A DNA stretch of 36,779 nt, taken from positions 1-36,779 of IMG/VR virus record IMGVR_UViG_3300047504_000025; one strand, written 5' to 3'. Of the stretch, positions 4,060 through 29,085 are shown piece by piece (position 1 is the stretch's first letter; each line of letters begins with the position of its first letter). Origin of the DNA: a virus. Taxonomy: Duplodnaviria; Caudoviricetes. Below the pieces are notes generated by a model, which ran no database searches, was not told the origin of the DNA, and saw only the letters and a list, made by a program, of their open reading frames with translations. Position numbers and translations under genes: made by a program.

Positions 4060-4641
4060 TTACCAAGTCCCTCCCATCTGGAACCCGTAATTAGGTTGAT
4101 TATATCCTTGGGAATCTGGCGAAGAGTTGGGGGTAGTTTGCCCCCAAGAAGTGTCCCATGGCGACATATATTGTTTCTGTGGTTTTTTCTGGCCAGCCAA
4201 CGAAACGGCGGCATTCATGTCGGCTATGGCCCCCTGTTTGGCCAATGCCTCCTTCTGCATCCGTTCCTGGGAGTTCATTCCGGCATATTGGCCATACATC
4301 TGGGACAGGGCCTGCATCGCCTGGGCCAGGAAATTGGTCCGGGTATCCTCTACACCAAGTTTGGCCTTAGCAGTATCGCCCGCTATTCGGGCACCCGTGG
4401 ACGCGGCCAAGGACCCGCTACTCATTCCACTGGCTACTGCGTCGGACGCGGCCTTGGCCTGGGCTTGGTTGGCCTGGGTATCGATTATGGCGTTCTGTCC
4501 GGCCCCATATCCTCCACCCTGTCTGAACAGATTTATCATATCTTGTAGAGTTTGTTTAGCGGGATTAAAATACGAGGATAACCCCCCTGAACTCCCGCCC
4601 AAAGAGCGCCCCCATTTTTCGAGGTCTTCTTGTGTCGTCAT
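4060..4641 (-). CDS. Small ejection protein (P22 gp7-like by composition and position)
   Basis: Gly/Gln/Ala/Ser/Met-rich ORF directly after the nozzle gene, TAATG coupling. Confidence 0.55.
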   Translation of the reverse strand: MTTQEDLEKWGRSLGGSSGGLSSYFNPAKQTLQDMINLFRQGGGYGAGQNAIIDTQANQAQAKAASDAVASGMSSGSLAASTGARIAGDTAKAKLGVEDTRTNFLAQAMQALSQMYGQYAGMNSQERMQKEALAKQGAIADMNAAVSLAGQKKPQKQYMSPWDTSWGQTTPNSSPDSQGYNQPNYGFQMGGTW

Positions 4642-6221
4642 TATTTTACCCGTCCAATCTCCGAAATATCGGCATCAACTTTTTCTATACTAAAACTTGA
4701 ATCTACTGTGTTATTGGATATTACAACTGCCACGGCCCCGTCCAATAATTTCTGGCGGAGTGACGGCAACAATGAGTCCAGCGTAAATGTTTTAAATGTT
4801 TTGGGGGCGATTCCAGATTTCAATTCGTCTATAAGTTTAGCCGCCGTTATCGCTGAATATAATCCTATAGAAAGGTGGTCGGTATCAATTCCAGTTCTAA
4901 CCGACAATTCATTTAATTTTACCTTACCCCTCGTCCCCTGGGCCGCCACCGGACCCAGTGTTACGTAACTGTCGATGGCCACGTCTGAATCATCGGCGGC
5001 CACGTCGGACTTAGTGGCTTCATCATACCGGCGTATGTACCCATCGTAACCGCCAACCAAACAAGTTCGTTCGGAGGCGATTCTGGAGTCAAAATAAAAT
5101 GATGACGCCGGCAACTGGCCTCCCTGATATTTTTCGGGGAATATGCCGCCAGTGCGTAAATCGAGCCACAACGCCGTATGCCACGCACCGTCTTTCTGGC
5201 TTATGGTTATTTGTATCCCGTAACGGTCTTTATCGTATACCATCGCAATCCGGTCGGTCCCCCGGTTCGTGGCCATCGAGGCCAACAATTTGGGAACCCG
5301 GTCCTTAGTCACGTTGGTGGCGGGCAAACTGTTTAATAATGATTCATAAGATATAGTATAAATCCCATCATTGCCTACAAAATACAGATTGTATTTGTCA
5401 TCCCAACAATATGACGTGGAACTGAATATGCCGGTGTTGTCTGTTAGAATAGTAAAGAATCCATTGCGCAGGGGGTCGGACCGCAACAGATACATTTTAT
5501 TGACGCAACCAAAAATCACAAAAAGGTCTTTATTAGGTATAATTGCTACAATCTGGTCCCCCACCAACCCGGCCTTCTCTGCGGCTTGACTATCACAGGC
5601 ACTGGCCACGTCATCTGTGACCAATGCTAAATCAAGTGGGTCGTTTATCCGGGTAGCAAACCATTGGTGTGGATGGAACTTACTATTCATAAAAATACGT
5701 CCAAACGCCAGGGCCATTATATCTGACCCGCCATCGGGAAACGTACCAGCGGTTAGGGTCCAGTTGAGCCAGTGGGGCGGATAAACGGGAGCAGCAGTAG
5801 GTGCCAGAGTTGCAGGAACGTCCCCAACTGTTCCAGTTATCGTAGTATCGATAACAAATGGCACCTCGGTAGTCCGGTATATCAGATTCCAAGTTTCGTC
5901 GCCGCCCGTCCCCTGGCCTGTTAGGGTCTCGTAAAATATCCCCTCGGCTATAACCTCTGGGTCCCCACCCTGATTTTGGGTAACTGTTTCGCCCTGGGTA
6001 AACGCCCCATCCGGTGTACCTACCAATCGGTCGTTAATAAAATCCAACTTGTGATAACCTGAGTCGTGTATATCTAACAACTCACCACTGGCGTCATATC
6101 GTGGCCGTCCATCAGCAAAATAGACCCGTTGATACGCGCTACAGGCCGCTATCTGCCCACTCGCGTCCAAGTCGCCCGCTGTGAATCCGTGGGTATCATC
6201 TAACAGTGTTAGGGTCGGCAT
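4641..6221 (-). CDS. Tail nozzle/hub protein (P22 gp10 / T7 gp12-like beta-propeller), C-terminal main part
   Basis: Propeller-type strands (AYQRVYFADG, AFGRIFM, GDQIVAI...VIFG, TGIFS..S, NLYFVGNDGIY, LVGGYDGYIRRYD) and position between adaptor and ejection genes. Confidence 0.7.
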   Translation of the reverse strand: MPTLTLLDDTHGFTAGDLDASGQIAACSAYQRVYFADGRPRYDASGELLDIHDSGYHKLDFINDRLVGTPDGAFTQGETVTQNQGGDPEVIAEGIFYETLTGQGTGGDETWNLIYRTTEVPFVIDTTITGTVGDVPATLAPTAAPVYPPHWLNWTLTAGTFPDGGSDIMALAFGRIFMNSKFHPHQWFATRINDPLDLALVTDDVASACDSQAAEKAGLVGDQIVAIIPNKDLFVIFGCVNKMYLLRSDPLRNGFFTILTDNTGIFSSTSYCWDDKYNLYFVGNDGIYTISYESLLNSLPATNVTKDRVPKLLASMATNRGTDRIAMVYDKDRYGIQITISQKDGAWHTALWLDLRTGGIFPEKYQGGQLPASSFYFDSRIASERTCLVGGYDGYIRRYDEATKSDVAADDSDVAIDSYVTLGPVAAQGTRGKVKLNELSVRTGIDTDHLSIGLYSAITAAKLIDELKSGIAPKTFKTFTLDSLLPSLRQKLLDGAVAVVISNNTVDSSFSIEKVDADISEIGRVK

Positions 6222-6429
6222 TGGTCTTGCTTTCCTTTGCTTTGCGAGTGAGATACCTGTGTATTTGCCTCGTCATTTTCTGAACCCAGTTTTCCTGTTC
6301 AACAGGGACTGTTGGTGGTGGTTTGGGTTTTTCCGGGGGGGTGTTAGCCTCGGCCACTTTAACTGATTCCGCATAACCCATACTTGGTTTCTTCATTTTT
6401 GCCTTTACAATATCTTCTGCCGCACCCAT
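6196..6429 (-). CDS. Small basic Pro-rich hypothetical protein
   Basis: ATG 2 nt after the upstream TAG with AAGGAG RBS; fills the operon gap. Confidence 0.6.
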   Translation of the reverse strand: MGAAEDIVKAKMKKPSMGYAESVKVAEANTPPEKPKPPPTVPVEQENWVQKMTRQIHRYLTRKAKESKTNADPNTVR

Positions 6430-6430
6430 A

Positions 6431-7213
6431 CTATGTCTCCTTAAAATAAATTATCCCAAGTCCGTCGGCATCGTATCCGACGGCAATTAACGTATTATTA
6501 TGCAGGGTATCGTCGTCGGCTATACCGGCGGGCCGGGTCGGGGGCCACTGGATAGGGGCTTTCAAACAATTTTCCACAACCAAACTAACGCTAAGCAAGG
6601 CACTAACTATTAACACACTCTCGTCGTAATCAATACCCGATGGAGTGTATGTTTGTATAGTCAAAACAACTGAACCCGTTCCTGAAACTATTGGCGTATC
6701 TTCATCATAAGCACTTGCTTCTGCGTCGTAGGTTTCAAATAAACAATCCTGATTTGTTCCTACCGACCAGGAATTTCCAGAGGTTGTGGAGGCATATAAA
6801 TCTCCTCCGGTATATACTCCAGTAACATCATATCGCCAATAAGCAGAAGTTGTAGTTGGTGCTCCTGTTGCTTTACAAACAACAGCATATTTTATTCCAG
6901 ATGTCAATGCCACAGGAGAAGAAAAGATTATTTCTCTCCATTCATAAGGGGAACCCGTTGGTAAAGTAGAACCATCTGTTGTTCCTGATGCTATTTCAGC
7001 AGAAGGATTATCGTCCACTGGAGCACCACCAGTGGTAGGAATTATTTCTACTGTTATAGTTCCTGGATTATTTGTAGCATGTCTAAGTAATAATAATTTA
7101 ACTTTAGTTATTGTATAGTTGGAATTCGCAGTAAATACCTGGGCCACCCATCTCGTAGAACCAAACGATAGGTTACCTGTATCCCCAGTGTTATAAGAAT
7201 CTTGTAGGACCAT
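6431..7213 (-). CDS. Virion accessory protein: choice-of-anchor-R-like beta-sandwich plus shared C-terminal tail motif
   Basis: WVAQVFTANSNYTITKVKLLL...GTITVEI...LTSGIKYAVV...SGNSW...DCLFETY; ends PPTRP...TLIAVG...IIYF. Confidence 0.65.
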   Translation of the reverse strand: MVLQDSYNTGDTGNLSFGSTRWVAQVFTANSNYTITKVKLLLLRHATNNPGTITVEIIPTTGGAPVDDNPSAEIASGTTDGSTLPTGSPYEWREIIFSSPVALTSGIKYAVVCKATGAPTTTSAYWRYDVTGVYTGGDLYASTTSGNSWSVGTNQDCLFETYDAEASAYDEDTPIVSGTGSVVLTIQTYTPSGIDYDESVLIVSALLSVSLVVENCLKAPIQWPPTRPAGIADDDTLHNNTLIAVGYDADGLGIIYFKET

Positions 7214-7629
7214 TATCCAGCCAAATCTATTTCTATTGCTACGTCCAAAGTATCACCATTTGCTAATGTACGGGTTTCTGATAATGGGGCCGATGCCACA
7301 AGTTTTCCGGTCTCGTCGACAGTAGTCGCCAAGAATACGGTATTGGCTCCGGTCCAATCCCCGCCTGCTTCAAAAGTAACGGTCTTAGTGGTAGTTTTCC
7401 TGTCTCCGGTTCCTGTGGTTGCTGATGTAAAATCAACATCATCGCTGGCCACGGTTTGTCTGGCATACCCCGTTCCGGTAACTTCTGTTAAATCTCCAAG
7501 ACCAACCCCTTCGGCGAGCGAAGCGTCTGTGCATAAACCCACATAAAAATTAACGGGAACAGATTGTTCCTCTGAAAAAACCACCTCAAGCAAAAACTGT
7601 AGGCCCTCTGTGTGTAGTTCCGCGGCCAT
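7213..7629 (-). CDS. Small phage tail-associated structural protein
   Basis: FYVGLCTD...EVTGTGYARQTV...VTF...GDW...GKLVASAPLSETRTL.NGDTL pattern common in fibre-associated virion proteins. Confidence 0.65.
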   Translation of the reverse strand: MAAELHTEGLQFLLEVVFSEEQSVPVNFYVGLCTDASLAEGVGLGDLTEVTGTGYARQTVASDDVDFTSATTGTGDRKTTTKTVTFEAGGDWTGANTVFLATTVDETGKLVASAPLSETRTLANGDTLDVAIEIDLAG

Positions 7630-8207
7630 TATACGCCTCCATAATAAATTTCGCCTTCTTCTCCGATGGCGATGAATTGTTGTCTATATCTTCCCCCGCC
7701 CCTGGCAGTGGGAGTCCACACACTATTTTCTTCGTCCCAACCGAGGTCGGGGTCATAATCCAGGGGGCGGTCGGGGACCAGGGAATCGGGGATGAAATAA
7801 CTGGGGGACGGGATGCCCACCATTATATCGTAACTGTCTGTGACGGTCCAAATTATTGTTTCGCCTTCTAACACATAAGACGCATACAATAATGTATAAG
7901 TTCCTGGTGCTATATCAGTTGGGATAGTAAATGTAAGTCTCCACCACACTATAGTATCCGGTGGGGGATTAACGGGTTGCTCTAAAGAAATATTGTCAAA
8001 AGTACTGCCAGTGATGGATACAGGATTATCTCTGTCCACTAAAAACAACCAATCTCCAGTTAAATTACCATCAGAAGTTTCATATAAACCCCTACCATTG
8101 CTTTCCGTATCAGCAAAATCGTTAAATTCAAAACTATACGTTCCACCCGGTGCCCAAGTACCATCGGTCTCTGTAGTAAAATTTCTCAGCCATTCGGGCA
8201 ACGCCAT
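7629..8207 (-). CDS. Virion accessory protein: Ig-like beta-sandwich plus shared C-terminal tail motif
   Basis: ATG of MALPEW 1 nt after the upstream TAA; LTFTIPTDIAPGTYTL Ig-like signature; ends PDRP...QFIAIGEEGEIYY. Confidence 0.65.
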   Translation of the reverse strand: MALPEWLRNFTTETDGTWAPGGTYSFEFNDFADTESNGRGLYETSDGNLTGDWLFLVDRDNPVSITGSTFDNISLEQPVNPPPDTIVWWRLTFTIPTDIAPGTYTLLYASYVLEGETIIWTVTDSYDIMVGIPSPSYFIPDSLVPDRPLDYDPDLGWDEENSVWTPTARGGGRYRQQFIAIGEEGEIYYGGV

Positions 8208-8208
8208 C

Positions 8209-8442
8209 TTACACCACCGGAGGGATAAAAGTCGTGGCAATTTGTGTCATAAGTATCACAGGTCGGGCACCCCCCACCTGTGTCTCATACGCCTTAATGA
8301 CCCCCGGACGTTGACCCCCCCGGATACGTTCGTCTTCTACGTCAAATGGGCGGACATTCTGCAACAGGGGGCTGGTAGTCAGCGGCTGTTTCTCCGCCGC
8401 CAGTCCTTCATGTAGTCCGTGTATGGGGAATGAAAGTTCCGT
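8209..8442 (-). CDS. 77-aa N-terminal fragment of the tail nozzle protein, ACG start
   Basis: Not in the track. GAGGTG-ATAT-ACG then ELSFPIHGLHEGLAAEKQPLTTSPLLQNVRPFDVEDERIRGGQRPGVIKAY...FIPPVV-TAA; in-frame TGA two codons upstream; fills the gap exactly. Confidence 0.7.
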   Translation of the reverse strand, partial: TELSFPIHGLHEGLAAEKQPLTTSPLLQNVRPFDVEDERIRGGQRPGVIKAYETQVGGARPVILMTQIATTFIPPVV

Positions 8443-8454
8443 ATATCACCTCTA

Positions 8455-8487
8455 AAATGGGGTCGGCCAAGGGGTCAGGCCGACCCC
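8455..8487 (-). terminator. GC-rich hairpin, probable leaky terminator/processing site
   Basis: GGGGTCGGCC-9 nt-GGCCGACCCC followed on the minus strand by ATTTT, directly before the RBS of the nozzle N-fragment. Confidence 0.55.
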
Positions 8488-8518: not shown

Positions 8519-8767
8519 TTAAGCTGCGGTAACGGTCTTAAAACTACAAGACGTGGCCGACCCCTCATTCACATACAACATTGTGTTATCGCCGCCGTCA
8601 ACATGCAAGAATAAACACGCCGGGGAATATCCTGCCGTACCGTCCACGGGCATCGTTAGGCCATAGGCCAATAAGATACCGTTCTCGGTAGTAAAAATTG
8701 CTCGTGCCGTTGCGGTTCCAGCCGGGGCCGGAATCATATTTTCTGCCTCATATCCAAATTCGCCCAT
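8519..8767 (-). CDS. Small structural hypothetical protein
   Basis: TAATG coupling; G.P....GY.P.CLF...DG.....LYVNEG pattern seen in small virion fibre-like proteins. Confidence 0.6.
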   Translation of the reverse strand: MGEFGYEAENMIPAPAGTATARAIFTTENGILLAYGLTMPVDGTAGYSPACLFLHVDGGDNTMLYVNEGSATSCSFKTVTAA

Positions 8768-10044
8768 TATTGCACCTTTCCTAAAAATGTAAAGTTTCTT
8801 GGTCTTGGTATTGGTTTTGCCTTTATTACCGCGTGTAAATTAGTGCGGCCATCGGCTTTCCACGCTTGGGGTAAATCTTTTTGTAAATACTCCTCAACGT
8901 GTCCGGCCTGTATATTCTCGAACTTCTGTTCGGCTTTGGCCATACACGCTGATAAAACGGCCTGGTCAAACTTCTGACCCGCCGGGTGGAGGTTGTTGGG
9001 GGGTTCCACGATATAAACGCTGGTGGTGTCGGGGTCTGTGGCAAACCATGTTGAGTCTGTAAACGTGAACGACCCCGTGGCTGCTACATAACTATCAACT
9101 AACGCCGATTGAGTTTTACCAGTGCCAGAGATTATACTTAACCCCCAGCCATTAAAATAATCATCGGCCTCGTCCCTTGTGGAATCAGCCAAAATATAAC
9201 TACCAACCGTAACGCCGGTAGCCACGCCGGACTCAATATCCAACTTATTAAACGTCAGCGTATACGGAAACTCAATTATCGCGTCGTCCACCGGGTCAGG
9301 ATAGACCAATAGTTCAAATCGGCGTTTCGGAGAAAGGCCAGATTTTGGTTCGTATTGTCGTATAGCAAGTAAATACGCGTCACCTGTCGAAACCGACATC
9401 TGCCGGAGCCGGCGTATGTCAGATTCTGTTACCCAACGTAATTCGCCACAGTTCGATGAATTTTTCTGGTACGACGGAACCCCGTTGACCTCGCCGCCGA
9501 AATACTCTGGAAGGGGATACCTACCAACGTCCCCGGCAATAGTCTCATATTTCGTAATCACAAATGTATCGGTCGCCGCCGGGGTCGTCCCGCCGGGGTT
9601 CCCGTTGTCTGTGAGCCACGCGGCCACGGTTATTACTCCAGTGGTGACGGTATAGGTAGCGACTTGTGCATAACTTCCAGCACCAGTACCAGTTAGAATA
9701 TAAACCCAATATCCGTTTATTTCATCATCAACGGTATAAGTATCGGCAAGAGTTAAATCGGTTATGCTCGTCTCTTCAGCAGCAGTAGCCACCCCCTCGA
9801 CCGCCGGCCCACAGGTAGATACCGACAGGATTCGTTTCCGCCACTGCCAACCCTGTGGCGGGGAGTCGGAAATAAATGACCGTATCCCATCGTTTATTAC
9901 GTCCTTGATGTCTTGGAGGTCGTCCTTGTCGATGGGTAACATCGAACGGGCCGCCCCATCAGTACCGCGGTAGGCCGTCCCGGCCTCCTTGGCTATCTTG
10001 GTACACAGTTCTTGCATCGTTAAGGCAGATGTCGGTTCGGACAT
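8767..10044 (-). CDS. Head-tail adaptor (tail tubular protein A-like) with two inserted repeat domains
   Basis: N-terminal helices (IKDVINDGIRSF...WQW), YPLPEYFG, LLVYPDP..., helical C-terminus; position after capsid genes. Confidence 0.65.
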   Translation of the reverse strand: MSEPTSALTMQELCTKIAKEAGTAYRGTDGAARSMLPIDKDDLQDIKDVINDGIRSFISDSPPQGWQWRKRILSVSTCGPAVEGVATAAEETSITDLTLADTYTVDDEINGYWVYILTGTGAGSYAQVATYTVTTGVITVAAWLTDNGNPGGTTPAATDTFVITKYETIAGDVGRYPLPEYFGGEVNGVPSYQKNSSNCGELRWVTESDIRRLRQMSVSTGDAYLLAIRQYEPKSGLSPKRRFELLVYPDPVDDAIIEFPYTLTFNKLDIESGVATGVTVGSYILADSTRDEADDYFNGWGLSIISGTGKTQSALVDSYVAATGSFTFTDSTWFATDPDTTSVYIVEPPNNLHPAGQKFDQAVLSACMAKAEQKFENIQAGHVEEYLQKDLPQAWKADGRTNLHAVIKAKPIPRPRNFTFLGKVQ

Positions 10045-26967: not shown

Positions 26968-27119
26968 GGTATATAGTATCCCGTGAACAGATTGTAAATA
27001 ACGAAGACATTGTGGATTTACAAATATATGCAGGTGCGCTGACAGGTAATAAACTCTTAAAAACCTTTCAAAAATTCAAAACTTTTTTCCGGCCTGACGA
27101 GGACACTGAGCGTGTATAA
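26931..27119 (+). CDS. Small hypothetical protein
   Basis: TTG start, 8-nt overlap with recG start. Confidence 0.4.
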   Translation: MFVKRFVVYPRLRYIVSREQIVNNEDIVDLQIYAGALTGNKLLKTFQKFKTFFRPDEDTERV

Positions 27120-29085
27120 TTGGCGAACCAAAATTCAAGCAGTGCGCGGCGTCGGCCCCGTCCGGGCGAAGGAACTCGCGGGTCTCGGTGTAACTACAGT
27201 CGGCGACCTCCTCGAACACAAGCCCTCCGACTGGATTTTCCCCGGCACAACCCCCATCCGCGACCTCTGTGTTGGGGAACAGGCGTTGATACAAGGTAGG
27301 GTCATATCCTGTTTCAGGCGACCAACGCAGGCCCCCATCGTTTCAGTCATGGTTGAAGACGAGACCGGGAAGGTTGAATTGGTATTTTTCAACCAAGTTT
27401 GGCTTCTAAATAACATCCGAAAAGGGATGCTGATTGCCGTATGGGGTAAAGTATCAGAGTACAAAGGACAGCCCCAGTTTTCCGGGCCTAAGTTTTCGAC
27501 CTGTGCATTTAAGCCGGATGAGATAACAGGCGGTTTATATGGTAAATACACACAGACGATTCGGGCGGCGTTGAGGGCGGTGCTGGCGGATGTTGAGATA
27601 CCTGATTGGATTAACCCCGACCTGTATGACCGGGCGGACGCTTTTTATTTCCTGCATTTCCCGGAGAACAAGCAACAATTAGAAGATGGGCTGGAACGGC
27701 TCCGGTACGACGAACTCTATCTACAGCAGATGGCTGTCGCAATCAAGAGACGGCAACAGGAACATACGCCTGGCAAAAAATATGAATATAGTCACTCTAA
27801 AGAGTGCGATTTAGAGGACAAGATAAAGCACTATTTTCCTTATAAATTTACCAGCGACCAAGATGCCGCTCTCCGAGATATTCTTAGGGACTTGTATCTA
27901 TCAAATAAACCGATGAACCGCCTCCTCCACGGTGACGTTAGCTCAGGCAAGACGGCTGTTGCGTTCTACGCGGCGATGCTTACGGCCCTGAATAATAAGC
28001 GGGCGATTATACTTTGTCCCACGACAATTTTGGCCTCCCAGCACTACGATGTTTTGAAATCTTACGGATGGGACGATGTGGAATTGTTTATCGGCGGCTA
28101 TGAAAATAAAGCCGAGTGTCATCGCAAGCGGGGAGTATGTATAGGAACAACCGCCCTGTTATGCGATATAGAATTATTAACGAAAGCGTCCCTCGTCATA
28201 ATCGACGAGCAGCAGAAATTCGGCGTGGCCCAACGTGCCTTGCTCCAGAAGTATGGCAACCCACACGTTTTACTTATGAGCGCGACCCCCATCCCTCGCA
28301 CAATCGCCCTCACGGTTTTCGGCGACCTGGATGTATCAACTATCAAGGAAATGCCAATTAAGCGTGGGGCCGTCGTGGCCCGTTGGGTACTACCAGACCG
28401 CCGTGAAGGCGTTTACGAATTGATTGACGAACAACTTAAACAGGGCCATCAGATTTATGTTGTCTATCCTCGTATTGCAAGTGGCGAGGAAGATATGACC
28501 GGCGTGGCCGATGGATACTGTGATATAGCCCGGCGATTCGCTGATTATTCCGTTGCCAGTTTGACGGGTAAAGATACCAGTGAAGTTAAAACGGATACCC
28601 TACGAAAGTTTAAGTCCGGTGAATATAAAATCCTCGTTAGTACAGTTATCGCCGAGGTGGGCCTTGACTGCTCGAACGCCACGGTCATGCTTATAGAGGG
28701 GGCTGATAGGTTTGGCCTGTCCCAACTGCATCAATTAAGGGGTAGAATATGCAGGTCAACTGAAACAGCGTTCTGTTTTCTAATGGCCTCCACCGCCAAC
28801 GATACGTCAATCGCCCGGCTCCGAACGCTGGAGCAAACAAACGACGGCTTCGAGATAGCCGAGGCCGACCTGAGACTGAGGGGGCCGGGCGAATTATTCT
28901 CGACGAAACAACACGGGTTGCCTGATTTAAAGTTTGCGAGTCTGGTGGATGATTACGAATTATTATTAAAAGCAAGAGAATTAGCGAAGATTGTTGTTGA
29001 CAAGTTGGATTTGCCAGAGTATAATGGACTCCGTAAAATGTTGGAAATTAAATATCTGAAACTTGATTTGGTGGGTGTCGCGTAA
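27112..29085 (+). CDS. recG: RecG-like SF2 DNA helicase
   Basis: RGVGP, wedge (DETG..ELVFFNQ), HFP...RL.YDEL, PMNRLLHGDVSSGKT, IIDEQQKFGV.QR, MSATPIPRT, STVIAEVGLD, RFGLSQLHQLRGR, TRG motif DGFEIAEADL.LRGPGE. Confidence 0.93.
   Translation: MYNWRTKIQAVRGVGPVRAKELAGLGVTTVGDLLEHKPSDWIFPGTTPIRDLCVGEQALIQGRVISCFRRPTQAPIVSVMVEDETGKVELVFFNQVWLLNNIRKGMLIAVWGKVSEYKGQPQFSGPKFSTCAFKPDEITGGLYGKYTQTIRAALRAVLADVEIPDWINPDLYDRADAFYFLHFPENKQQLEDGLERLRYDELYLQQMAVAIKRRQQEHTPGKKYEYSHSKECDLEDKIKHYFPYKFTSDQDAALRDILRDLYLSNKPMNRLLHGDVSSGKTAVAFYAAMLTALNNKRAIILCPTTILASQHYDVLKSYGWDDVELFIGGYENKAECHRKRGVCIGTTALLCDIELLTKASLVIIDEQQKFGVAQRALLQKYGNPHVLLMSATPIPRTIALTVFGDLDVSTIKEMPIKRGAVVARWVLPDRREGVYELIDEQLKQGHQIYVVYPRIASGEEDMTGVADGYCDIARRFADYSVASLTGKDTSEVKTDTLRKFKSGEYKILVSTVIAEVGLDCSNATVMLIEGADRFGLSQLHQLRGRICRSTETAFCFLMASTANDTSIARLRTLEQTNDGFEIAEADLRLRGPGELFSTKQHGLPDLKFASLVDDYELLLKARELAKIVVDKLDLPEYNGLRKMLEIKYLKLDLVGVA

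Follow-up and report, generated by a model that had tools for sequence, protein, structure and literature searches.

A split form of the podophage tail nozzle whose missing propeller hairpin may be supplied by alternative C-terminal plugs

Introduction

Podophage tail nozzles are regarded as uniform hexamers of one chain, the six-fold ring being established for P22 gp10 and T7 gp12. The locus described here raises the question of how such a nozzle is completed when its gene has come apart. It lies in a 36,779-nucleotide (nt) stretch of viral DNA (Caudoviricetes; IMG/VR record IMGVR_UViG_3300047504_000025, positions 1 to 36,779; hereafter the window), in which an open reading frame (ORF) for a 526-amino-acid (aa) propeller protein is separated from a 77-aa ORF resembling a nozzle N-terminus. 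A preliminary description, made from the letters of the window, had counted four genes between the two, and these are indeed present, encoding 192, 138, 260 and 77 aa. It proposed that the nozzle is assembled from three chains, with alternative passenger proteins donating a missing beta-hairpin.

Comparable systems are known elsewhere. Chaperone-usher pili are built by donor-strand complementation, in which a fold is completed by the terminal strand of a neighbour, and T7 gp10A/B are long and short structural isoforms recoded from one gene and mixed in one assembly. The Pseudomonas podophage A1002 is reported to have a nozzle-rope, gp39, and a nozzle-base, gp42, whose incomplete blades are completed by beta-strand complementation; besides an immunoglobulin (Ig)-like domain, the complementing chain has a rope to which GP4 gp80-like dimers bind; in GP4 itself, according to the same source, a chain-like fibre consists of gp80 dimers on a separately encoded rope (PMC13730344).

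Here, we show that the nozzle genes of the window are a split form of the podophage nozzle fold, and that their three pieces tile intact nozzle-fold homologs in order, the space between them fitting a single hairpin. The simplest reading is that each subunit has one slot, left empty either through separation of the genes or through an internal start, and that alternative plugs occupy it. We consider it probable that either of two donors can fill this slot, giving mixed nozzle rings.

Results

The separate pieces tile intact nozzles and leave room for one hairpin

To place the 77-aa protein (the N-piece), we compared its profile with longer proteins, which gave 273 matches; among the matches listed, 81 of 120 also carry the family of the 526-aa protein (the body) downstream. 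The N-piece aligns to the N-termini of longer proteins, as the three-chain proposal had it. Its frame contains FPIHGL..QP.TTSP.LQNVRPFD..RIRGGQRPG, and the F..GL...N...RPG segment, which the preliminary description attributed to P22 gp10/T7 gp12-like nozzles, was shown for the intact members of this family. The body family is large (120 matches), and its members start at the same point, without the N-piece. In the closest intact homologs, P0127 and P0168, a single hairpin of ∼20 residues stands between the N-piece part and the body part. A profile made from tails that have genes of their own matches that hairpin (E 3e-5 and 3.5e-6). A profile–profile comparison of the plug with intact alignments found the correct columns, weakly (E 0.005, probability 7%).

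The same division is seen in predicted structures. An intact homolog was modelled with a predicted local distance difference test (pLDDT) value of 91.6 and has four consecutive strands (65-74, 82-90, 93-97 and 103-105), of which the first closes the N-piece, the next two form the hairpin and the last opens the body; its top Foldseek matches are nozzles (Pa223, VP1, P22 gp10, T7 gp12 and GP4; E 6e-21 to 7e-12). The window body folded alone (pLDDT 90.3) covers residues 81-472 of P22 gp10 (Z 16.6, root-mean-square deviation (rmsd) 3.5, 351 residues aligned) and matches 9nwi_Y (Z 18.2, rmsd 3.9, 384 aligned). Generic WD40 propellers reach Z values of up to 16, yet over ∼240 residues only. Both the intact homolog and the window body have the platform, beta-propeller and tip of P22 gp10, Sf6 gp8, T7 gp12, Pa223, VP1, GP4 and Pam1. 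Unlike these canonical nozzles, which are single chains with 8–14% identity to the nozzle here, the window encodes separate ORFs that are conserved across relatives. By itself the body is incomplete, as had been suspected: about the first 80 residues of solved nozzles are missing, and its own first residues, the first strand, are coil. In the broken blade, strand a would come from the N-piece, strands b and c from a plug and strand d from the body. The two-strand hairpin missing from the N-piece and body would then be a contribution of another chain, the C-terminal tail of one or the other donor.

We modelled this arrangement for the N-piece and body with the C-terminal 40 residues of donor 2, the 260-aa protein. 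One strand of the tail docks on N-piece residues 62-67 and the other on body residues 4-7, which is the gap into which the tail had been predicted to donate its hairpin. The complex scored 0.93 in interaction prediction from aligned errors (ipSAE), with 0.00 for the best of three controls; at least 89% of contacts recur between runs, and the pLDDT of the partners is at least 63. Of 157 solved pairs 116 attained the ipSAE mark, as did 2 of 215 mismatched pairs, a calibration that applies only roughly here, and the pass may stem from likeness to solved intact nozzles, as halves of split genes can pass in this way. The model supports binding of the donor 2 tail between N-piece and body, and model and homology together point to completion of blades in trans by strands of another gene product. 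The outcomes that the preliminary description had named as contrary to its proposal all went the other way: the body is not complete alone, the N-piece does align, and a tail, that of donor 2, docks in the model.

Many intact forms of ∼800 aa carry a domain inserted just ahead of the hairpin, and this loop is therefore an insertion hot spot. The same forms favour a covalent route, in which recoding, splicing or inteins would join the pieces into one normal nozzle chain bearing a domain insertion, as does the N-piece stop 1 nt ahead of the start of the 192-aa gene (donor 1). We regard that route as highly improbable, since the first donor can be in any of the three frames relative to the N-piece among relatives, donors lie upstream of the N-piece in three of them (L134, L202 and L204), the body has its own start, and Pfam names no intein family, which agrees with the earlier failure to see an intein signal. 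We instead expect a non-covalent assembly in which the plug would clamp the other two chains.

Two predicted donor genes with dissimilar passengers end in plugs of one family

Two of the intervening proteins had been described as having unrelated N-terminal domains and like ends. The tails are as described, and the N-terminal domains are dissimilar (best blastp E 2.2). A plug profile built without the window clade ranked the two donor frames first and second of the 864 frames of the window, with an E value of 1e-8 for donor 1. The tail of donor 2 is tied to the plug family through a relative (L004) whose equivalent tail retains the full motif. With the window clade included, the profile gave exactly two matches in all five near-complete records, one of which (45.7 kb) does not differ from the window in either of the two proteins searched.

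The passengers differ in kind. That of donor 1 may be an Ig-like beta-sandwich, judged from weak structure matches (template modelling score about 0.5), with Atlas structure matches giving leads only (0.87 or less), and when 82 passengers were grouped into 22 clusters it stood alone. The head of donor 2 is DUF4082/lectin-like, below the Pfam cut-off, and is loosely common to 56 of the 82. Across 30 passenger-bearing or intact proteins, Pfam named three (two DUF4082 below cut-off, one PASTA); neither Pfam nor PHROGs gave a name to donor 1 or to either nozzle piece. From their position and fold, the passengers likely serve host attachment.

Between the donors lies a gene of the Gp80 family, whose 138-aa product has no sequence match in the PDB. 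Tandem repeats before the plug occur in 12 of the 13 donors that directly follow a Gp80-like gene versus 7 of 69 others, and in one relative (L003) the Gp80-like gene, the rope and the passenger head have been lost together while a 48-aa plug-only gene is retained. By analogy with GP4 and A1002 (PMC13730344), donor 2 likely includes a short rope, with Gp80-like dimers bound at its repeats. The likeness to GP4 is that a Gp80-family gene stands directly before one whose product has short tandem beta-repeats; here, however, the rope has two repeats and ends in a nozzle plug, and dimer binding is predicted.

Relatives combine attached plugs, internal starts and donor genes

We collected 224 loci, 195 of which contain the body, in 135 clusters at 95% identity. 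Eight clusters are intact and two were dropped after a wrong first call, so that 125 split loci were classified. In State A (42 loci), the N-piece is separate, the plug is still on the body and no donor gene lies within 7.5 kb; in State B (44 loci), the plug is on the body and there is at least one donor gene; in State C (37 loci, the window included), the body has no attached plug. An in-frame ATG or GTG stands right after the attached plug in 44 of 44 State B loci and in 1 of 42 State A loci, and 36 of the 37 State C loci have two or three donors. The number of tail-bearing genes thus varies among relatives, as had been anticipated, with one to three donors per genome.

The internal starts have stronger ribosome-binding sites than controls. 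Those scored by script (n = 42) comprise 31 GTG and 11 ATG, with GTG making up 17% of the Val codons in the same genes, and the Shine-Dalgarno (SD) match before them is longer than before a conserved downstream control Met (p 8e-9). Three loci that seemed to have an internal start and no donor turned out to carry a donor upstream of the N-piece. A tree from columns outside the plug and junction (FastTree only) makes States B and C sisters several times, and one locus of each state (L173, B; L170, C) has the same ribosome-binding sequence at the junction, inside the gene in one and after a stop in the other. These sequence patterns suggest that an internal start after the attached plug likely yields a slot-vacant body that accepts a donor; one gene in these relatives would then have two products, a full-length body that includes a plug and a slot-vacant body, a second route to the two-plug state. 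They also lend support to the earlier suggestion of interchangeable plugs in one slot.

A different arrangement would have two sites, one tail completing the blade in every subunit and the other binding elsewhere, on the nozzle or on the adaptor, with a fixed composition. Two plug types per genome are the rule (32 loci without an attached plug have two donors, and 38 with one have a single donor), and in the window clade the two plugs often differ in loop length, both of which two sites would account for. However, intact homologs have one hairpin, a single plug per genome is enough in two near-complete records (G002 and G005), and donors are found in 0 of 8 intact loci (several of them short) and 0 of 42 loci with attached plugs only, in the DNA fetched. 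Two sites would also leave no need for an internal start that removes the attached plug, it is the more divergent tail, that of donor 2, that docks in the canonical slot, and five loci have three plug types, attached plugs being partly counted. We therefore consider two sites unlikely.

If there is one slot, it could still be used by one donor at a time, the other being vestigial, conditional or far outcompeted and the rings essentially uniform. The linker of donor 2 does lack the YDPD..WD and GGGRY motifs, but both genes are intact, each tail has a conserved counterpart in L002 and in L003, the plug-only gene of L003 has been kept, donors of 80 aa or less occur in 9 of the 37 State C loci, and contigs of four runs contain no inversion or excision joint; exclusive use of one donor is in our view quite improbable. 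We favour a single slot per subunit for which the two donors likely compete, such that each of six subunits would take either donor and relative expression would set the numbers of each passenger per virion. The mixed rings predicted in this way may be random or ordered, for example alternating.

Several points weigh against this reading. The tail of donor 2 is divergent (E 0.81 by a plug profile without its clade), its docking model used a self-made alignment containing all tails, and docking was modelled for this one tail with N-piece and body. Attached plugs were called by pattern, 12 loci were corrected by eye, and two loci are in none of the three states. There are only four phylogenetically independent A/B pairs for the link between internal starts and donors (none contrary, p 0.125), and the raw counts therefore overstate that link through kinship. 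One locus (L058) has an internal ATG without a donor in a record with terminal repeats. The adhesin role of the passengers rests on sub-threshold Pfam matches and position. Finally, tblastn against 50,697 phage records, in which the presence of A1002 is unconfirmed, gave no cultured-phage match to the body or the intact homolog.

Relation to known split assemblies

Like A1002, the locus would rebuild a nozzle from separate chains by strand complementation and includes a rope and a Gp80-like subunit. A1002 is reported to have two chains and a single, obligatory partner, with platform-C and two partial blades (residues 469-620) coming from the donor (PMC13730344). In contrast, there are three chains here, the break lies near the N-terminus, the donor gives ∼20 residues as one internal hairpin, alternative donors (plug-only ones included) are encoded and relatives would make an internal-start isoform. 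The body here also keeps its C-terminal platform, being aligned up to P22 gp10 residue 472. The locus would work like the A1002 split nozzle and is not a member of its type, since it is broken at another point, has another number of chains and receives another part from the donor.

Compared with chaperone-usher pili and T7 gp10A/B, the folds are unrelated and a two-strand hairpin would occupy the centre of a blade, with a different chain on either side; the short isoform would create a vacancy rather than add a domain as in T7 gp10A/B.

The literature searched, with subscription journals largely outside it, contained one report of a split nozzle, in which the partner is fixed (PMC13730344), and none of alternative plugs or internal-start nozzle isoforms. 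A slot with alternative short plugs would break six-fold uniformity and, if true, make swapping of tail-tip modules very cheap, since a short C-terminal tag would suffice. The states of the relatives would also document stepwise fragmentation of a structural gene, from loop insertion to break, internal start and full separation, with a hidden in-frame isoform, overlooked by gene callers, predicted in about 44 related genomes, and the parts would offer a compact three-part complementation module. More tentatively, and in our estimation at slightly under an even chance, this uncultured lineage of podophages may as a whole have one nozzle blade that acts as a universal socket, such that the product of any gene ending in a ∼20-residue plug could be shown at the tail tip, blank plugs and the internal start would tune the share of the six sockets given to each passenger, and the receptor-binding make-up of virions from one genome would be mixed and variable, set by translation ratios, not by mutation or DNA inversion.

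Layout of the locus and further observations

The features are listed in Table 1. The window contains a phage head–tail module on the minus strand, with terminase, SU10-like portal and capsid matches upstream of the nozzle genes, then a 425-aa adaptor-position gene and an 82-aa gene, downstream of which the frames of 77, 192, 138, 260, 77 and 526 aa follow on the same strand. Adaptor and ejection genes were assigned by position alone. This gene order is that of the portal-capsid-adaptor-nozzle-ejection module of podophages, with the nozzle genes, like canonical ones, between head/adaptor and tail/ejection-like genes. The second 77-aa ORF is probably outside the nozzle.

Table 1. Positions of the nozzle pieces, donors and neighbouring features in the window
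Feature	Position	Strand	Basis
Hairpin upstream of the N-piece, terminator- or operator-like (putative)	8459..8487	-	paired stems in clade relatives
Shine-Dalgarno-like GAGGTG, 4 nt ahead of the N-piece ACG	8447..8452	-	sequence
Nozzle N-piece, 77 aa, ACG start; platform N-strands and strand a of the broken blade (residues ~61-67)	8209..8442	-	
Plug donor 1, 192 aa; lineage-specific passenger, linker and C-terminal plug	7629..8207	-	
Predicted plug hairpin of donor 1, residues 176-190; putative docking by homology	7638..7682	-	
Gp80-like chain-fibre subunit, 138 aa	7213..7629	-	Pfam PF23140, 50.1 bits, cut-off 27
Plug donor 2, 260 aa; DUF4082/lectin-like head, two 27-aa rope-like repeats and C-terminal plug	6431..7213	-	
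Two tandem ~27-aa repeats, donor 2 residues 169-216	6566..6709	-	
Plug of donor 2, residues 236-259; docking modelled	6437..6508	-	
Basic 77-aa ORF without plug, variable among relatives	6196..6429	-	
Nozzle body, 526 aa; platform, tip domain and the propeller apart from strands a to c of the broken blade	4641..6221	-	

At the start position of the N-piece family, most relatives have ATG or GTG; the window has no ATG, GTG or TTG there, and has ACG (8440-8442, minus strand) instead. Among 106 distinct upstream stretches, with one more cut off by a contig end, five have no standard codon, two of them having ACG and three ATC at that position. Such non-standard starts occur in the window and in relatives L014, L021, L056 and L110, with ACG in L003/L014 and ATC in three others, and the ACG of the window is repeated, with 0 differences, in a contig from another study. 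The sequencing runs that contain the window DNA are from freshwater sediment, and the run search listed no RNA data containing it. Matches to genome bins fall in unrelated taxa, and therefore no host was assigned.

Directly before the ribosome-binding site of the N-piece, the hairpin keeps its pairing in ∼11 clade loci while the stem letters vary. Its loop is a pyrimidine-rich CCCCTT, and a run of T comes after it; the whole resembles a terminator or operator, which would lower expression of the nozzle cluster. A promoter and terminator scan gave hits at chance level only.

Some observations concern donors in relatives. One plug donor (L012:6234-7088) has a PASTA domain (Pfam E 3e-12), hinting at cell-wall binding. 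In two loci (L025:2212-3634 and L121:8212-9628), a donor gene is apparently interrupted by an HNH-like ORF, which may mark an intron or the insertion of a mobile endonuclease. A 194–196-aa gene stands ahead of repeat-bearing donors in two loci without a detected Gp80-like gene (L111:8064-8651 and L114:4091-4672), and possibly encodes another rope-binding subunit.

Extra domains are also found within nozzle homologs. P0132, P0134, P0137, P0138 and other N-piece homologs have a Laminin-G domain (PF13385) ahead of the final blade strand, an insertion site that, judged from these sequences, is a further passenger-carrying place. Body homologs P0094, P0099, P0067 and P0072 have extra domains in the tip region, including the DUF4082-like domain of donor 2 (E 5e-13). 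The adaptor-position protein (8767-10044, minus strand) contains, by eye, two alike internal segments (∼85-165 and ∼270-350), and a segment related to these repeats is inserted in some nozzle bodies, P0067 for example. Elsewhere in the window, a 657-aa protein (27112-29085, plus strand) has motifs of what we take to be a RecG-like helicase, presumably unusual in a phage.

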